DNA from: an uncultured Gammaproteobacteria bacterium
Lineage (GTDB): Bacteria > Patescibacteriota > Microgenomatia > Daviesbacterales > UBA10151
Assembly: GCA_964522265.1 (NCBI GenBank)
Contig: CAZFVS010000022.1
Coordinates: 1-13,122, forward strand
DNA: 13,122 nt
Direction of reading: 5' to 3'
The notes beneath the pieces are model-generated. The model did not search any database. It was not told the DNA's origin and was given only the letters and a program-made list of their open reading frames with translations. Of this stretch, positions 1-13,122 are shown piece after piece. The first letter of the stretch is position 1. Every line of letters begins with the position of its first letter. Made by a program: the position numbers and the translations under genes.

Positions 1-347
1 TTAAAAGCGATTATATAACCGCTGACGATATAGTAGTGGCTAAAAATTATTTAAGTGAAAATGAACTCAATCAATTAAATATGATCGTTTCGCTATATAT
101 TGATTTTGCGGAGTTGCAAGCAAGCAGCGGCCGTCTTATGAAAATGCAGGGTTGGATCAACAAACAGGTCGAGTTTTTATCTATTAGTGAAAAGAAATTA
201 CTTCACAGTTCCGGCAAGGTGAGCGCAAAGCAGGCAGAAAAGAAAGCATTGGCAGAATATGAAAAATACCGTAGCGAGTGGGACAAAAATTATATTTCAG
301 ATTTTGACAGGGAGATTAAAAAACTTTTGAAGAAAGCTAAGAAATGA
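1..347 (+). CDS. RhuM-family protein, C-terminal ~115 aa only; the 5' end lies upstream of the window
   Basis: The frame is open from nt 3 (KSDYITADDIVVAKNYLSENELNQLNMIVSLYIDFAELQA...) to TGA at 345-347. The AKNYL..E.EL..LN.IVS.Y.D.AE ... SAKQAEKKALAEYEKY pattern matches my recollection of RhuM C-termini. Recall-based, no search run. Confidence 0.6.
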   Translation, partial: KSDYITADDIVVAKNYLSENELNQLNMIVSLYIDFAELQASSGRLMKMQGWINKQVEFLSISEKKLLHSSGKVSAKQAEKKALAEYEKYRSEWDKNYISDFDREIKKLLKKAKK

Positions 348-453: not shown

Positions 454-2622
454 ATGAGTGTCTTGAGTTACCTGTCCAAATTCCTCCCTTTTCCTAAAAA
501 AAATCCAACAGAGAATTATTTTTTTGCTTTGAATATCGGTCCAAAAATAGTTGAGGCAGCTCTTTGGGGAATTGAAGGACGGAGATTACAAATTATTGCA
601 AAAACTCATTCAGAATACCCGGCTGAAGATGAATTAATAGATACTGCAAATGTGGCTTTAGATGAAGCTTTGGCAGATTTTCAGCCTGAACCGCAAAAAA
701 TTCTCTTTGGTGTACCCCAATCCTGGCTACAGGATGACAACCTCAAACCCGAGCACCTTGATTATTTAAAAAAGATGGTTAAAGAATTAGGAGTTTCCCC
801 GATGGCTTATGTTTCAACTGTCCAGGCGGTTTCACATTACCTGCAAAAAAAACAGGGAGTTCCACTGACAGCAGTTTTAGTTGAGATAGAGGATCCCTTG
901 ACAGTTAGTGTGGTCAAAGCCGGGAAGATTGTTGCATCTAAAGACCAAAAAAGATCAGCTAATTTGCCAGAAGATATTGAAAAAGCACTTTTGACCTTTG
1001 GTGATATCGAGGTATTGCCTTCAAGAATACTCATCTATGGTACTAAACCTAATGGTTTGGATCAACTCAAAGATGAGCTTTCATCTTTCCCCTGGATGTC
1101 ACAACTTTCCTTTCTGCACCTGCCCAAAATTGATACTTTAGAAACAGGAATTGGTTTGATTGCTGTTTGTTTAGCGGGAGCTTCTGAGATTAACCCAGGA
1201 TTATCTTTCCATGCAGCAGATTTAAGTTCTATTACACAAAAACCGCCAATTAAAACAGGCCATTTTAGCAAAAATACGGGTTTTGTATCCGGGGATATAG
1301 CGCAGTTGCAGGAGGAAGAATCATTCGGCCAGCCCATGGAGGCAGATTATCCTGCAGATAAAACTCAGAGTTATGTTCCTGTTAAAAGATCTGAACCGGG
1401 AAAGATACAAAAATTTTTAAGCCTGCCCCTTAAACTTCTGCCTGGTGGTGAAAGTATTTCCAGGCCGGGTAAACACCTGTTGATGTTCTCCAAACTCGCT
1501 ATTGTCTTGCCTGTGTTGGTGATACTGCTTATTCTGGCAGCATTACTATTTTTACCAAAAAGCAAGATTAATATTTTTATAGATTTACGAATTCTGGAAG
1601 AAGAGTCGACGGTTACAGCTGATCCCAATATTGCCCAAGTTCAAGAGGGGGATAAAAGAATACCCGGCAAGCTAGTTGAGACTACTGTAACAGGTTCCTC
1701 AAAGGGGTTAGCAACAGGTAAAAAACAGATTGGGGATCCGGCAAAAGGAAGTGTATTAATCTACAACAAAACATCTTCCCCTAAAACTTTTCCCCAGGGA
1801 ACAGTTTTAATCAGCCCGCAAAGCCTGATGTTTACGCTCGATGCAGCTGTTAATGTTGCTTCTTCCTCGGCAGTCGAGGGCGGTATAGCTTTCGGTAAGC
1901 AGACTGGTAATGTGACAGCTTCAAAGATTGGTTCTGACGGTAATCTTCCGGCCGGAACAGAATTAACAATTAAAGATCAGCCGGTTGCATCGTTTAACGC
2001 CAAATCCGATAGTGCTTTTTCCGGAGGGGTCAGCAAGGATGTGATGATTGTGACCACCGATGACCAAAAAAAACTTTTGGCCTTGCTTACCTCAGATCTG
2101 CGCAAAAAAGCACAAGAAGAATTACAGGGGAAACTTATTGCCGGTCAGAAAATTCTGGAGGAGGCATTGTCTGAAGATATCGTTAACTCAAGCTTTTCCA
2201 AAGGGGTTAATGACCAGGGTCAGGATTTTATGCTTAACTTGACTGTGCGTTATAAAGGCACTGCTTACAATGAGAACGACTTAAAGCTGATAGTGTCAAA
2301 ACTCATTGAGACAAATGTACCTCAAGGCTACGTGCTTGATCTCTCAAAGACAGAAACACAAGCGCAGGTTTCCAGGAAAGATAAAGATGGCAAGCTGATA
2401 TTTGTCTCTAAATTTAGAGCCAAACTCGCACCTAAGATTGACGTTGAACAGGTAAAAAAGGATTTAGCGGGTAGAAGCATTGAGGAAGCTGCGGAGAGGA
2501 TTAAGAGGATAGAAAATGTGATAGGATCTGAAATTGAGCTAAAACCCAAGTTACCCTTAAAATTTCTCCAAAGACTGCCGTTTTTACCGCAAAATATCAC
2601 TATAGAAGTAACGGCAAAATAA
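454..2622 (+). CDS. Large membrane protein: N-terminal degenerate FtsA/PilM-like actin-fold domain, one TM helix, C-terminal beta-rich extracytoplasmic domain (possibly baseplate-J-like)
   Basis: 722-aa ORF. The N-terminus follows the order of actin-fold subdomain motifs: FFALNIGPKIVEAALWGIEGRRLQII, ILFGVPQSW, ELGVSPMAYVSTVQAVSHYL, AVLVEIEDPLTVSVVKAGKIV. The phosphate motifs are altered (NIGP instead of DxG[ST]; EIEDPLT instead of DIGGGTT). A hydrophobic helix spans aa ~342-367 (nt ~1477-1554). The C-terminal segment (ATGKKQIGDPAKGSVLIYNKTSSPKTFPQGTVLIS...NVTASKIGSDGNLPAGTEL) resembles CPR proteins I recall being annotated baseplate J/gp47-like. Confidence 0.5.
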   Translation: MSVLSYLSKFLPFPKKNPTENYFFALNIGPKIVEAALWGIEGRRLQIIAKTHSEYPAEDELIDTANVALDEALADFQPEPQKILFGVPQSWLQDDNLKPEHLDYLKKMVKELGVSPMAYVSTVQAVSHYLQKKQGVPLTAVLVEIEDPLTVSVVKAGKIVASKDQKRSANLPEDIEKALLTFGDIEVLPSRILIYGTKPNGLDQLKDELSSFPWMSQLSFLHLPKIDTLETGIGLIAVCLAGASEINPGLSFHAADLSSITQKPPIKTGHFSKNTGFVSGDIAQLQEEESFGQPMEADYPADKTQSYVPVKRSEPGKIQKFLSLPLKLLPGGESISRPGKHLLMFSKLAIVLPVLVILLILAALLFLPKSKINIFIDLRILEEESTVTADPNIAQVQEGDKRIPGKLVETTVTGSSKGLATGKKQIGDPAKGSVLIYNKTSSPKTFPQGTVLISPQSLMFTLDAAVNVASSSAVEGGIAFGKQTGNVTASKIGSDGNLPAGTELTIKDQPVASFNAKSDSAFSGGVSKDVMIVTTDDQKKLLALLTSDLRKKAQEELQGKLIAGQKILEEALSEDIVNSSFSKGVNDQGQDFMLNLTVRYKGTAYNENDLKLIVSKLIETNVPQGYVLDLSKTETQAQVSRKDKDGKLIFVSKFRAKLAPKIDVEQVKKDLAGRSIEEAAERIKRIENVIGSEIELKPKLPLKFLQRLPFLPQNITIEVTAK

Positions 2623-2624
2623 TC

Positions 2625-4418
2625 TCATTTCTCCATCCGCCTTTTTTGAATTGCAAGCACGAACTCTGTCATTAGTGACCTTGCGTCGCTGATTAAATTT
2701 TGTTCACCGCGAAGTTTCTTTTGATATTCTTTCCTTAAAACTTCAGCAGCCTGCTTTTTATCGGAGTGAGGTATTCCTGAATACAGATGGTATTTTTGCA
2801 AAAGCTTAAGAACTCTTTGCAGGAAGTTGTTTCTTAAGGAGTCATATTCTGTATTTTCCCGCGATAACAAGACAGATAAAACTTGAACTTCATGTATTAA
2901 CCGGTAAGTATTTTTCCCAACTACCCGCGGAGTGCGGAACTCAACCCGAAAACGCGAAAGAGCATTTTCGACCCGCATTGTTAAAGAGTGTGCTTCTTTA
3001 ATCTCCCAAGCGTTCATATAATAGCTTTGTCTTGACGCTACCCTTCCGGCCGGAATAAATGCAAAAGTTAGGATATCGCTAATGGCTTCGGCAACTACCG
3101 GATAAATGATTTTTGCCCTAACTCTGCGATTTTCACTATCGTAAGAATGTGAGTTAAATTTTTTTGTCCCCCCGATGTTAATATGCATGGAGGCAAAAGT
3201 GTTATCAATCGGTACGAGTCCTGCTTTTCTCAGCTCAAAAATCATCCTGTTTTGGGTGGCAGCTGAGTGAGTTGGGGGGAACTCTATCTCTGTTGGGCTA
3301 TTGTTGGTAAATTCCTGTTTTGGGGTAAGTCCCATTGCTAGTAAATCCATTATTTTTTGTGGTTTGTGACTAAAGCCATCTTTATCATAAAAAACAAATG
3401 GAAAAAAATTAGAGGGGACTTCAATTTCAACCCCAACCGTTGGCAACCCTTTTTCCTTTGCAGCTTCTGTTTCTTTTTCGATAATTTTTTGGTAGCGGTC
3501 CAGTTCACCTGTGAGGTCAGCATCGGTGGCCTGTGGGTGGTCGGATAAAAAATTATAAATATGCAAATTCAAGGCAGGTCTAACGGTTTGCAAGGGACTG
3601 TCTTCCAAATAACTTCTCACAATTTTGACCGCTTTGCTAGCCTTTTTGCTCGCGGACGATGCAGATTCATGTGCAGTTTTTTCTGCTCGTTGGGTTTCTG
3701 CGTGAGAGTGGGTTGGCTCTTGATCTATTGCCTGATCATGTGTTATATCAGCCAATGTTACAAAACGGTATCTTTGCCGATTTGCAAAGTTTCTTGGGCT
3801 TGAAAGAAAACTTAGAAAATGAGCTTTTTCATGCGGTAGTAATCGGGCATTATCGATATACGATCTTGTCCCAGGTGTGCCGGTTGCTGCTAAAGCTTCA
3901 AGATATGAAAATAGTACATTCCGGTCAATTCCAGTGGAGTCGAGAATAGATGTTAGCTTGTTGCTGATTTCAATAAGTCTGATATTTGCCGGATTTTCCG
4001 TACGGATGGAGTAGATTAGCCTTAGTAAAGTGTCGCTGACATGTGCTGCTGCACTGGTATCGGAGTTGTTGTAAATTCCCTCAGACCCGGCAGAATCAAG
4101 TACCAACTCCAGGTCCTCTGCCTCTGCTAGGGCATCCTGGAAAAGGGTATAAAGAAATTTTTTATACAAACTACCCGATAAAGCTTCCCGTAAATAAGGT
4201 AAAATTTTTGGACCCAAGGCGAAAAGTGCCTGTTCTGCGTCTAAACGGTTGTGAAATTCTTGAAGAATACTATTATTGTCATATATTCCTAGTTTAACAA
4301 CAAGGGCGTCAATTTGGGATCTTTCTTGCTCAGTTAAACGGTAACGCTCCTGGTTGAAAAAACTTTCCTCAGAAGAAGATTGTCTTGTTGTCTCCATCGT
4401 CTCCATATTATCCATCAA
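2625..4418 (-). CDS. Hypothetical protein with a C-terminal amidoligase-like (glutamine-synthetase-fold carboxylate-amine ligase) domain and an unrecognised ~320-aa N-terminal region
   Basis: 597-aa ORF. Ordered motifs are VGVEIEV (E331/E333), PTEIEFPP (E377/E379), SMHINIGG (H412) and RVEFRTP (E493/R495), in aa ~325-520 (nt ~2859-3446). The codon at 4418 is TTG. The next codon (4415) is ATG and is the more likely start. Confidence 0.55.
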   Translation of the reverse strand: MMDNMETMETTRQSSSEESFFNQERYRLTEQERSQIDALVVKLGIYDNNSILQEFHNRLDAEQALFALGPKILPYLREALSGSLYKKFLYTLFQDALAEAEDLELVLDSAGSEGIYNNSDTSAAAHVSDTLLRLIYSIRTENPANIRLIEISNKLTSILDSTGIDRNVLFSYLEALAATGTPGTRSYIDNARLLPHEKAHFLSFLSSPRNFANRQRYRFVTLADITHDQAIDQEPTHSHAETQRAEKTAHESASSASKKASKAVKIVRSYLEDSPLQTVRPALNLHIYNFLSDHPQATDADLTGELDRYQKIIEKETEAAKEKGLPTVGVEIEVPSNFFPFVFYDKDGFSHKPQKIMDLLAMGLTPKQEFTNNSPTEIEFPPTHSAATQNRMIFELRKAGLVPIDNTFASMHINIGGTKKFNSHSYDSENRRVRAKIIYPVVAEAISDILTFAFIPAGRVASRQSYYMNAWEIKEAHSLTMRVENALSRFRVEFRTPRVVGKNTYRLIHEVQVLSVLLSRENTEYDSLRNNFLQRVLKLLQKYHLYSGIPHSDKKQAAEVLRKEYQKKLRGEQNLISDARSLMTEFVLAIQKRRMEK

Positions 4419-4446: not shown

Positions 4447-4797
4447 TTAAAGCCCAAACATATCTAGAAAATCCATCCAGAGTTTGCCCCAAAAACCTGA
4501 TTTCCGGTACTTTTCATACCGCCGTTTTTTGTAATAGTCCCGGGTGCCTTCCAGGGGCGGGTCGATCCAGCAGGAGATAATCACCCATTGGTATTTATCA
4601 TTTTGTTTGGTAACAACCGTCACCTTTGATTTGCCAAACCATTTTTGGTACTGGGTGGATCCGTTTTTACCCCCCAATGTTTTGTCAGGGTAGTGGAATG
4701 CTTTCCAGGCTAAATCTTGGGATAAACCCCGATGCCCCAATCTATCCAAAGCATGATTTGTCCAAACAGCATCACCGTAATATTGTTGGCCAGCCAT
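4447..4797 (-). CDS. DUF4258-like small protein (toxin-like fold) with a basic/aromatic C-terminal tail
   Basis: 116-aa ORF with an ATG start. The N-terminal W-T-N-H-A-L-D-R-L-G-H-R-G-L-S matches the HAxxRxxxRG[IL]S signature I associate with DUF4258. It is followed by a beta-rich core (KVTVVTKQNDKYQWVIISCW). It lies 28 nt upstream of, and co-directional with, the 597-aa gene. Confidence 0.45.
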   Translation of the reverse strand: MAGQQYYGDAVWTNHALDRLGHRGLSQDLAWKAFHYPDKTLGGKNGSTQYQKWFGKSKVTVVTKQNDKYQWVIISCWIDPPLEGTRDYYKKRRYEKYRKSGFWGKLWMDFLDMFGL

Positions 4798-5970: not shown

Positions 5971-6029
5971 GCCTGCCTGCCGGCAAGGTAGGCTTTCGCT
6001 CGCCTCGCTTCGCGGGCGAAGCGGGCGGG
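5971..6029. repeat. GC-rich tandem hairpin element between ruvX and mltG, containing repeat copy A (core 6000-6026)
   Basis: Hairpin 1 pairs GCCUGCC (5975-5981) with GGUAGGC (5987-5993), loop GGCAA, with one G-U pair. Hairpin 2 pairs CGCTTCGC (6006-6013) with GCGAAGCG (6016-6023), extendable by CGCC/GGCG with one bulged U. The GC richness contrasts sharply with the AT-rich flanks. Confidence 0.7.
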
Positions 6030-7833: not shown

Positions 7834-8130
7834 CTAAAATTGAGATGTTTCTTTGTGGAGATTGGTAAAATCCTCTGAATAATCCGTTGGTGTTAATTTT
7901 TCTATCTCGCCTTTCAGGTTAGAATTTTGGTCAATTGGGGGTAGGGAGGGCTTGCCCGCTTCGCCAGCGAAGCGAGGCGAGGGAGTGGGTAATGGTAAGG
8001 CTTGTTTAGTAATTTTAGGAAATATTAGCTGTGTTTCTTTGTTTCCGGAAAATATTTTTATTCCATAAAATAGCGCAAAACCGATTAAAATAGCAACTAT
8101 AATTATGAAAACCAGTTTTTTAAAATTCAT
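7834..8130 (-). CDS. Small membrane-anchored, Pro-rich hypothetical protein
   Basis: 98-aa ORF with an ATG start and N-terminal TM helix LVFIIIVAILIGFALFYGIKIF. The rest is low-complexity and contains repeat copy B, read as SPRFAGEAG. No family recognised. Confidence 0.4.
   Translation of the reverse strand: MNFKKLVFIIIVAILIGFALFYGIKIFSGNKETQLIFPKITKQALPLPTPSPRFAGEAGKPSLPPIDQNSNLKGEIEKLTPTDYSEDFTNLHKETSQF
7954..7980. repeat. GC-rich palindromic repeat, copy B (inverted relative to copy A at 6000-6026)
   Basis: GCCCGCTTCGCCAGCGAAGCGAGGCGA is the reverse complement of 6000-6026 (TCGCCTCGCTTCGCGGGCGAAGCGGGC) at 26 of 27 positions. The internal palindrome is CGCTTCGC..GCGAAGCG. Confidence 0.85.
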
Positions 8131-11199: not shown

Positions 11200-12594
11200 A
11201 TGCCAATTTTAAAAAGAACAATGTTTCGTGAATACGATCTGCGGGGACGCGAATCAGAAGATGAGTTGAATGATGAATCTTTGTATTACATTGGGAGGGG
11301 ATTTGGCACTTATCTAAAAAAAAGAAATATCACAGAAGCTGTAGTTGGGCATGACGCCAGAGGAACTTCAGAGAGTTTCCATGCAAATGTTATAAAAGGA
11401 CTTTTGGAATGCGGGATTAATGTTATAGATATTGGAACAGTGACTACCCCAATGGGTTATTGGGCGCAGTACCATCTCAAAGTTAAGGGGCTTGTGACTG
11501 TTACAGCCAGTCATAATCCGGTTGGATGGAATGGTGTTAAGTTAGGCTCAGATTTTTCCTACACACTCCTAACAGATGAGCTAAATGAGGTTTATGACAT
11601 CATCTGTAAAGAAGAGTTTGCAAACGGCAAAGGGACGATCTGTAAAGAAGATATTTTAGAGCATTATACAAAAGATCTGTTATCTAAGGTAACAATTTCC
11701 AAAAAATTTAAAATTTTAATCAATACGGGCAACGGTACAGCAGGCATTGTTGATCCTAAAATTTTTAAAAAAGCCGGTTGCGAAGTGGTGGAGCATTTCA
11801 CTGAAATTGATCCTTCATATCCTAACTACACACCCAATCCAGACGGCACAGCCATGATGGAGGATACAGGCAAACAAACTGTTAAAAATAAATGCGACCT
11901 AGGGTTCGCTTTTGACGGGGATGGTGATAGATTAGGGTTAGTTGATGAAAAAGGTGAGATTATTTGGCCGGATAGATATATTATTTTGCTTTCCAGATTA
12001 ATCTTGTCAAAAAAACCAGGGGCGAAAATTGTCTTTGATGTGAAAGTTTCAGAGGCTTTGCCTGAGGATATTAAAGCTCATGGTGGACACCCAATTATGT
12101 GGAAGACAGGTCATTCTTATATCAAAGCTAAACTGGCTGAGGAAAAAGCTGAGTTGGCAGGGGAAATGAGCGGGCATATATTTTTTGTGCATGATTTTTA
12201 TGGTTTTGATGATGCAACTTTTGCCGGACTTAAATTATTAGAATATTTATCAACTCAGGATCAGTCGTTGTCAAAGATCGTTGCAAAAACTCCTTATTAT
12301 GTTTCAACCCCTACAATTCAGGTTGAAACTACAGATGAAGATAAATATAAAGTAGTAGAGGCTTTAACTAAAGAATTTAAATCTGAGGGTTATAAAGTAA
12401 TAGATATAAATGGGGCGAGAGTTTATACAGAATATGGTTGGGGATTATTGCGTGCCTCATCTAATACTCCGACTTTAGTGCTCAGGTTTGAGGCTAAAAC
12501 TGAAGAGGATCTGGAGAAAATAAGGGTTATTTTTAAAGAAAAACTGGACAAATTTCCAATAGTCTCTAAAACCTGGGATTCTACCGGGCATTAG
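11200..12594 (+). CDS. Phosphomannomutase/phosphoglucomutase (alpha-D-phosphohexomutase family)
   Basis: Active-site Ser loop TVTASHNPVGWNGVK, Mg loop FAFDGDGDRLG, sugar loop GEMSGH, and phosphate loop LLRASSNTPTLVLRFEA (AlgC/ManB-like rather than GlmM-like). Confidence 0.9.
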   Translation: MPILKRTMFREYDLRGRESEDELNDESLYYIGRGFGTYLKKRNITEAVVGHDARGTSESFHANVIKGLLECGINVIDIGTVTTPMGYWAQYHLKVKGLVTVTASHNPVGWNGVKLGSDFSYTLLTDELNEVYDIICKEEFANGKGTICKEDILEHYTKDLLSKVTISKKFKILINTGNGTAGIVDPKIFKKAGCEVVEHFTEIDPSYPNYTPNPDGTAMMEDTGKQTVKNKCDLGFAFDGDGDRLGLVDEKGEIIWPDRYIILLSRLILSKKPGAKIVFDVKVSEALPEDIKAHGGHPIMWKTGHSYIKAKLAEEKAELAGEMSGHIFFVHDFYGFDDATFAGLKLLEYLSTQDQSLSKIVAKTPYYVSTPTIQVETTDEDKYKVVEALTKEFKSEGYKVIDINGARVYTEYGWGLLRASSNTPTLVLRFEAKTEEDLEKIRVIFKEKLDKFPIVSKTWDSTGH

Positions 12595-12761
12595 ATATTT
12601 CTCAGAGGTACTTCTAAATGGGTTTGAATAGCTTCTGCTAAGTTTTTTTTGGTTTCCGCAACAGTTTTCCCCCAAGTATGGACGCCTTTGAGTAATGGGA
12701 CAAAACCATGATAGCCATCTTCATCAGGTTCAATAATTGTGCGGTAAGTATAAGTTTTCAT
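12591..12761 (-). CDS. HicB-like / UPF0150 family small protein (antitoxin N-terminal fold only)
   Basis: MKTYTYRTIIEPDEDGYHGFVPLLKGVHTWGKTVAETKKNLAEAIQTHLE fits the HicB N-terminal domain pattern (y.a.ie.d.dG.y.a.vP.l.Gc.t.G.T.eEa..n..eAi). I place the start at ATG 12761. The longer track ORF from 12815 would overlap the tgt start. Confidence 0.55.
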   Translation of the reverse strand: MKTYTYRTIIEPDEDGYHGFVPLLKGVHTWGKTVAETKKNLAEAIQTHLEVPLRNI

Positions 12762-12774
12762 GGTTGTATTATAA

Positions 12775-13122
<348 letters not shown>

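Follow-up and report, generated by a model that had tools for sequence, protein, structure and literature searches.

Amidoligases that share the fold of glutamine synthetase (GS) make glutamine, glutathione precursors and metabolites of phages and plasmids and once, in the case of PafA, they attach a ubiquitin-like protein tag. The catalytic strands of GS itself carry the motifs ExE, E, HxH, R...R and ExR. The carboxylate-amine ligase superfamily has six core strands in the sheet order 231465, and strands 3 and 6 are followed by conserved helices (Iyer, Burroughs & Aravind 2008, PMC2588565). In the same description strand 1 carries GhExE or Ex[EH], strands 2 and 3 bear acidic residues, strand 4 has [HD]x[NH], strand 5 contains an arginine with a second arginine in the preceding loop and strand 6 has Ex[RK]x2D; GhExE is diagnostic of the ligase branch and is absent from the guanido-kinase branch. 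The gene examined here lies in a stretch of 13,122 nucleotides (the window, contig CAZFVS010000022.1 of assembly GCA_964522265.1) from an uncultured bacterium labelled as a gammaproteobacterium. The C-terminal domain of its product is best described as a new family of the GS-fold carboxylate-amine ligase superfamily, one for which there is no curated database model, and the protein is probably an ATP-dependent enzyme that forms amide bonds.

2625 to 4418, minus strand: ligase-like gene, complete, 597 codons, taken from the list of open reading frames (ORFs); residue numbers follow this 597-residue ORF.
2628 to 3635, minus strand: predicted catalytic domain, residues 262 to 597, with a three-helix cap, a six-stranded GS-type core and a C-terminal helical bundle, delimited from an AlphaFold 2 model and from stand-alone relatives.

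Modelling of residues 262-597 with AlphaFold 2 from an alignment of 82 sequences gave a predicted local distance difference test score (pLDDT) of 87.9 and a predicted template modelling score (pTM) of 0.88. The model contains strands at residues 328-334, 365-368 and 376-379, a helix at 386-398, strands at 410-416 and 489-496 and a helix at 501-518. The full-length model was made from two sequences only and was poor (pLDDT 57). It also places strand 1 at residues 328-334, with strand 4 at 408-415. Strand 5 (residues 457-462) is seen only in this low-confidence model, the better model having a helix there. The order along the sequence, namely strand with GhExE, strand, strand with E, helix, strand with HxN, helix, strand with R, strand with ExR and then helices, agrees with the superfamily core. 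When the PDB was searched with Foldseek, the best 23 matches were all glutamine synthetases or YbdK/GCS2 proteins (1tt4, 1r8g), with E-values from 1.5e-4 to about 0.09. The first 19 have probabilities of about 1, and the other four lie in the range 0.66-0.97. A Foldseek search of BFVD, a collection of predicted viral structures, placed seven proteins named amidoligase among the top 18. A GS-fold COOH-NH2 ligase had been proposed for this gene in an earlier reading of the sequence only, and the structure searches provide the likeness which that proposal would predict. The domain limits suggested at that time, residues 325-520, were too narrow, as the conserved domain extends over residues ~262-597.

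The positions of the catalytic motifs were obtained by direct translation of the window coordinates.

3420 to 3434, minus strand: core strand 1, GhExE present as GVEIE, residues 329-333 (G329, E331, E333), predicted metal/ATP ligands.
3246 to 3314, minus strand: core strands 2 and 3 with E369 and E377, then the start of a helix with S383-x-S385-x3-Q389-x-R391; residues 369-391 are EFTNNSPTEIEFPPTHSAATQNR.
3171 to 3191, minus strand: core strand 4, SxHxNxG present as SMHINIG, residues 410-416 (H412, N414), corresponding to the superfamily [HD]x[NH].
3030 to 3044, minus strand: core strand 5 region, RVASR, residues 459-463 (R459, R463), predicted phosphate-binding arginines.
2925 to 2948, minus strand: core strand 6, RxExR present as RVEFRTPR, residues 491-498 (R491, E493, R495), corresponding to the superfamily Ex[RK]x2D.

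Conservation was counted in a MAFFT alignment of 130 C-terminal domains having about 20-25% identity to the query. In strand 1, G329 is found in 130/130, E331 in 127/130 and E333 in 128/130 domains. E377 is invariant (130/130) and position 369 is acidic in 89 of the 130 (E in 73, D in 16). The segment which follows is specific to the family, with S383 in 112, S385 in 105, Q389 in 123 and R391 in 96 of the 130. Strand 4 retains S410 (119/130), H412 (129/130), N414 (124/130) and G416 (120/130). R459 is invariant (130/130), R463 is kept in 109/130, R491 in 125/130 and E493 in 129/130, while position 495 is basic in 128/130 (105 R and 23 K). Other near-invariant positions are E316 (128/130), P326 (125/130), Q512 (127/130) and R580 (109/130). 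The superfamily order of elements, the GhExE of strand 1, the acids of strands 2 and 3 and the motifs of strands 4 and 6 are all present. Given that eight charged or polar residues are near-invariant at ~20% identity, and that they occupy the positions of the catalytic motifs in the correct order, they are taken to be an active-site signature, and the pattern goes well beyond what chance would give.

Translation of the 597-residue minus-strand ORF places GVEIE, TEIE, SMHINIG and RVEFR at the residues given for them in the sequence-only reading. Conservation of the residues singled out there holds for E331, E333, H412 and R495 and fails for E379, which is N, S or A in most of the 130 domains. 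The supposed second ExE is therefore really a single glutamate, E377.

The domain had been likened to the Pfam families Amidoligase_2 (PF12224) and GCS2 (PF04107). Neither model matched at E ≤1 in any of 82 family members, that is the protein and 81 relatives; in positive controls, gp21 of Pseudomonas phage tf matched PF12224 and E. coli YbdK scored 328 bits with PF04107. Because both tests gave no match, the domain is placed outside these two families. Profile-profile comparison with hhalign used 33 relatives of the phage tf amidoligase as the Amidoligase_2 alignment and 13 sequences, E. coli YbdK and 12 plasmid-borne homologues, as the GCS2 alignment. The scores (P 0.0064 and probability 5.9% for GCS2; P 0.025 for Amidoligase_2) are below HH-suite significance. 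The alignments are co-linear. GhExE pairs with GiEeE of GCS2 or GxExE of Amidoligase_2, E369 and E377 pair with two GCS2 glutamates, SLHINLG pairs with HvHVG of GCS2 or THxH of Amidoligase_2, AF(T/S)SP just before R459 pairs with AsSP of GCS2 and, when the GCS2 alignment is extended, RLEIR pairs with TLEVRV. This pairing is weak corroboration of a GS-fold kinship and not proof of it. Running hhalign against the single sequences of YbdK and the phage tf amidoligase was uninformative. The Klebsiella ‘amidoligase’ of the literature refers to ATP-grasp enzymes and was set aside as irrelevant.

The size of the family became visible only with an exhaustive profile hidden Markov model (HMM) search of 1.84 billion cluster representatives (50% clustering). 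This search was needed because a word-index homology search gave a single homologue, P0002, and three when run with a profile. The exhaustive search found 184 relatives at E ≤1e-3, of which 24 were at E ≤1e-30. Domains were mapped on the best 150 of these 184. The C-terminal region (residues ~262-597) is present in 130/150, most commonly as stand-alone proteins of 330-430 residues. The N-terminal region (residues ~20-210) is present in 46/150, both regions together in 30/150 and the N-terminal region without the standard C-terminal region in 16/150.

The family is rare and patchy and is found mainly in genome-reduced bacteria of the candidate phyla radiation (CPR) or Patescibacteria. Matches in genome collections were from Portnoy-, Taylor-, Nomura-, Levyi- and Saccharibacteria, with further members in five metagenome-assembled genomes (MAGs) labelled Gammaproteobacteria (one of 62.5% GC) and another in a MAG assigned to Oligoflexales (L013). 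The family thus appears to reach beyond Patescibacteria. The 62.5% GC member is L015 (contig CAZURG010000012.1); L018, L022 and L023 are also among the MAGs labelled Gammaproteobacteria. No relative was found by tblastn in 50,697 phage genomes and a phage origin of the gene was rejected on this basis. The surroundings of individual family loci are unrelated chromosomal housekeeping genes. It had been remarked that the window lacks the usual amidoligase partners and this applies to the family at large: class-II amidotransferase, peptidase, alpha-E, transglutaminase and ATP-grasp partners are absent from the window and also from 29 related loci.

The part of the protein preceding the catalytic domain consists of a helical module and a linker.

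3789 to 4361, minus strand: N-terminal module, residues ~20-210, all-helical in the AlphaFold 2 model, recurrent and promiscuously fused, matched on its own in 46/150 mapped representatives.
3660 to 3794, minus strand: low-complexity linker rich in His, Ser, Ala, Lys and Glu, residues ~209-253, pLDDT <50, variable in length and unalignable between homologues.

The linker is predicted to be disordered. The N-terminal region had been described as large and unrecognisable; it contains a module that is not unique to this protein and recurs in others. In P0080 it is joined to a Fic domain (Pfam E 6e-12), for which the best NCBIfam similarities, below the family cut-offs, are to the effector-type proteins XopAC and AnkX; P0090 and P0097 are truncated relatives. 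In P0073 and P0139 the module precedes a divergent GS-like domain, and in P0081 it is accompanied by a sub-threshold match to a pol-beta nucleotidyltransferase. In P0004 (1325 residues) and P0005 (1106 residues) the module, of which P0004 has two copies, is followed by the ligase and by an extension of ~450 residues ending in an MNT/pol-beta-type nucleotidyltransferase domain. A weak Telomere_reg-2 match was seen in P0004, and the gene for P0005 (L024, 8001-11321) is located directly after secA. P0040 and P0123 have the module fused to a common C-terminal head of ~250 residues that has no match in Pfam, NCBIfam or the PDB. By eye, this head has the segment ‘(V/I)(L/V)(I/V)FDSCIHSG’, which looks phosphoribosyltransferase-like; the resemblance could not be confirmed and is not relied on.

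The suggestion that the N-terminus is HEAT-like is weakly supported. The low-confidence full-length model gave Foldseek matches to CLASP TOG, symplekin HEAT, beta-catenin and importins with E-values short of significance (E 0.15-0.5, probability up to 0.98), and no Pfam repeat family matched the module. It is possibly an ARM/HEAT-like solenoid, a tentative assignment. As one helical module joins interchangeable nucleotide-using heads, Fic included, the fusions suggest that it is an adaptor for a common macromolecular target, partner or delivery route. The idea of the sequence-only reading that the N-terminus is a target-recognition module gains indirect support from the presence of the module on Fic and other heads elsewhere.

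An ATP-dependent, amide-bond-forming ligase of the GS fold is considered the best account of these observations, with a probability of roughly 0.7. By analogy with characterised members of the superfamily, ATP and two or three Mg2+ or Mn2+ ions would be held by E331/E333, E369/E377, H412/N414 and E493. The carboxylate of the substrate would be phosphorylated to an acyl-phosphate stabilised by N414, R459, R463, R491 and R495, and attack by an amine would then give the amide with release of ADP and Pi. E316 of the helical cap, S383, S385, Q389 and R391, Q512 and R580 are candidate substrate-binding residues. The N-terminal module, to which the catalytic domain is connected by the disordered linker, is most likely an adaptor that would recruit the ligase to a target or partner of macromolecular nature, probably a protein. 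The resemblance in fold, the order of the motifs and the conservation of their residues are observed; the chemistry, the parts played by single residues in binding metal and ATP and the function of the adaptor are inferred.

A number of results weigh against this account. Searches of Pfam, NCBIfam and PADLOC with the protein gave no meaningful match, Amidoligase_2 and GCS2 being absent even at E ≤10, and the PDB, searched by sequence with the protein and with two family profiles, gave no match. No family was matched consistently when 82 family members were searched against Pfam and PHROGs, and the HH probabilities were only 2-6% across the characterised families tried. The Foldseek matches in the PDB have TM-scores of only 0.30-0.39 and high root-mean-square deviations, although such values are to be expected if only a core of ~150-200 residues is shared, in which case the match would be one of fold class and not to a close structural relative. 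Within the motifs, position 498 is acidic in 104 of the 130 domains (100 E and 4 D) and is Arg here and in 15 other proteins, and the second conserved arginine, R463, is downstream of R459 and not in the loop before strand 5. Clustering of all ORFs from 30 loci showed no neighbour conserved past near-identical genomes, so the neighbourhoods give no hint of a substrate. The adaptor role is argued purely from the logic of domain fusion. Lastly, enzymes of the GS fold can be hydrolases too, as Dop demonstrates.

The nature of the substrate divides the possibilities further. The enzyme may be a small-molecule ligase, for instance a gamma-glutamyl-amine, peptide or cofactor synthetase, with the N-terminal module serving only regulation or oligomerisation. 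This can be entertained at somewhat less than even odds, since the nearest folds, GS and YbdK, are metabolite ligases, about 100 of the 130 relatives are catalytic domains without an adaptor and the family loci are situated among chromosomal housekeeping genes. However, the 30 loci have no biosynthetic partner in common, whether an amidotransferase, a peptidase, a cyclotransferase or a second ligase, a family this rare and patchy (184 representatives) is unlike a core metabolic enzyme and the adaptor is held in common with a Fic-domain protein. A ligase directed at proteins is ranked a little below the small-molecule ligase and, taken by itself, is somewhat unlikely. A broader proposal is more doubtful still, namely that the N-terminal module is a common targeting or delivery module of modular protein-modifying enzymes, the bacteria concerned being host-dependent ones (Patescibacteria together with some proteobacterial MAGs). 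The heads in this scheme would be the GS-fold ligase, its divergent GS-fold variant, Fic, a pol-beta-type nucleotidyltransferase and at least one further head. If it were true, the GS-fold head would represent a new amidoligase directed at proteins, such as a glutamylase or an amine-conjugating enzyme, as PafA is for Pup, whose target in an episymbiotic lifestyle would be a protein of the host or of the bacterium itself.

Chemistry other than ligation is improbable. The domain could be a Dop-like amidase or deamidase with ATP/ADP as a cofactor, or a phosphotransferase whose reaction stops at the phosphorylated intermediate. Dop and PafA carry out opposite reactions with the same fold and motifs, and replacement of the acid of Ex[RK]x2D by R498 in a subclade could change the chemistry. 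Retention of the complete ligase-type set of residues, including both arginines and GhExE, argues against such a change, as does the failure to find Pup-like or other amide-bearing partners encoded nearby; PafA and Dop are also absent from the top 50 PDB fold matches. It is very improbable indeed that the likeness is superficial or the domain dead, that is, a GS-shaped binding protein or pseudoenzyme, or another fold mis-modelled by AlphaFold. The low TM-scores and the lack of significant homology at the profile level would suit such an explanation. It is opposed by the eight near-invariant residues, which match the superfamily catalytic motifs in position and order, by the agreement of the top fold matches in two independent libraries (PDB and BFVD) and by the high confidence of the model of the domain.

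The start codon of the ligase-like gene is ambiguous, with TTG at codon 1 and ATG at codons 2, 5 and 8. A database protein, P0001 (590 residues), matches the ORF at 100% and begins at M8, while the alignment with the nearest homologue, P0002 (41% identity), begins at M5. The contig encoding P0002, L001, is syntenic with the window: it has the same 116-residue upstream gene and the same convergent gene for a membrane protein of ~720 residues, and sortase, RuvX, YceG and thymidine kinase genes are also near P0002. Genes in the window encode a sortase, RuvX, YceG/MltG, a VanW-like protein, thymidine kinase, a PD-(D/E)XK nuclease, a cytidylate-kinase-like protein, a phosphoglucomutase/phosphomannomutase, a HicB-like protein and a RhuM fragment. 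The window has a GC content of ~40% and looks like a fragment of the chromosome of one of the Patescibacteria, which are ultra-small CPR bacteria.

4447 to 4797, minus strand: ORF of 116 residues upstream of the ligase-like gene, on the same strand and 28 nucleotides away.

This small ORF and the ligase-like gene are probably co-transcribed. The 116-residue protein is 75% identical between the window and L001, compared with 41-43% for the ligase. It shows a sub-threshold match across the whole of the DUF4258 (toxin-like) profile (E 0.06 and 0.012) and has a Trp/Phe-rich C-terminal tail with FGL as the last residues. Among the 30 loci the ORF adjoins the ligase gene in the window and L001 only. 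It was rejected as a conserved operon partner because it recurs only in the closest relative.

Some further features of the window were recorded.

36 to 347, plus strand: C-terminal ~100 residues only of a RhuM-family protein (Pfam profile positions 167-247 of 252; PADLOC candidate PDC-S05), either cut by the contig end or a gene remnant.
454 to 2622, plus strand: protein of 722 residues, convergent with the ligase-like gene and syntenic in L001 (711 residues), with a mid-protein transmembrane helix.
12591 to 12815, minus strand: small HicB/UPF0150-like ORF of antitoxin type near the contig end.

Beyond a marginal Baseplate_J-like match, whose E-value of 1.3e-4 slightly exceeds the threshold, the 722-residue protein is without annotation. 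A GC-rich inverted repeat of 31 nucleotides has arms at 5996-6026 and 7954-7984 that are 94% complementary, and a palindrome, CGCTTCGCGGGCGAAGCG, is contained within each arm. One arm falls within the 5' end of the YceG/MltG gene and the other within that of an ORF of 98 residues, and both encode SPRFAGEAG. The repeat looks like a small palindromic element, similar to repetitive extragenic palindromes, that brackets the YceG and VanW-like genes.

The protein represents a new family and a new architecture within a known superfamily. Given that the catalytic apparatus appears intact in a family of ~180 clusters that has no curated model, is found mainly in CPR bacteria and has no biosynthetic partners in the loci compared, the family may carry out an uncharted ATP-dependent amidation reaction. 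An adaptor common to Fic and other nucleotide-using enzymes would provide a testable handle on protein modification by episymbionts, and the alignment and motif definition would allow databases to label these ‘hypothetical proteins’ as carboxylate-amine ligases.

Among known systems, glutamine synthetase type I (8fbp, 9n4x, 4s17, 1lgr) gives the best Foldseek E-values, 1.5e-4 to 1e-2, and has the same catalytic strand motifs, at about 12-14% identity and TM-scores of 0.35-0.39. Unlike GS, the present protein has no GS N-terminal domain and none of the signature inserts (the adenylylation loop and the Glu flap, for example), and nothing suggests a dodecameric ring. Amidoligase_2, exemplified by gp21 of Pseudomonas phage tf, is likewise a compact ligase of the GS fold that lacks the N-terminal domain of GS and has GxExE, a second motif containing Trp and Glu, Hx[HN] and EFR in the same order. 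Three of these four motifs co-align in the extended HH alignment, EFR being paired with a second E-F-R of the family five residues downstream. The phage subfamily differs in having an invariant W...DGSLR, which this family lacks, and the phage tf gene adjoins genes for a class-II glutamine amidotransferase, an ATP-grasp protein and an AIG2-like protein, none of which is found here. This family is chromosomal in CPR bacteria and is not carried by phages or plasmids.

The Pup ligase PafA and the depupylase Dop share the GS fold, GhExE, [HQ]x[NH] and arginines in and near strand 5, and their protein substrates are a precedent for protein modification. Strand 6 of the PafA type is [QH]x4D where this family has ExR, and no Pup-like gene (C-terminal G[EQ]) or proteasome gene is near the ligase-like gene in the window. 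Identification as a Pup ligase was rejected because of the wrong strand-6 motif and the lack of a Pup-like neighbour. Identification as a guanido kinase or McsB was rejected because GhExE is present and invariant; an arginine kinase appeared only at rank 37 (E 0.33).

GCS2/YbdK (PF04107; 1r8g, 1tt4) has a catalytic domain of similar size, also without an N-terminal beta-grasp domain, and the same order of GhExE, acids of strands 2 and 3, Hx[HN], an SP...R segment and ExR. The two YbdK structures stand third and seventh in the Foldseek search of the PDB and GCS2 is the best, though weak, profile-profile match of the family (P 0.0064), with the motifs in register. Unlike GCS2/YbdK, the family described here has a three-helix cap with the invariant E316, the S-x-S-x3-Q-x-R segment, Asn instead of the second His and a taxonomic range mostly within Patescibacteria, and this particular protein has R498 where an acidic residue would follow ExR and is fused to the putative adaptor module.

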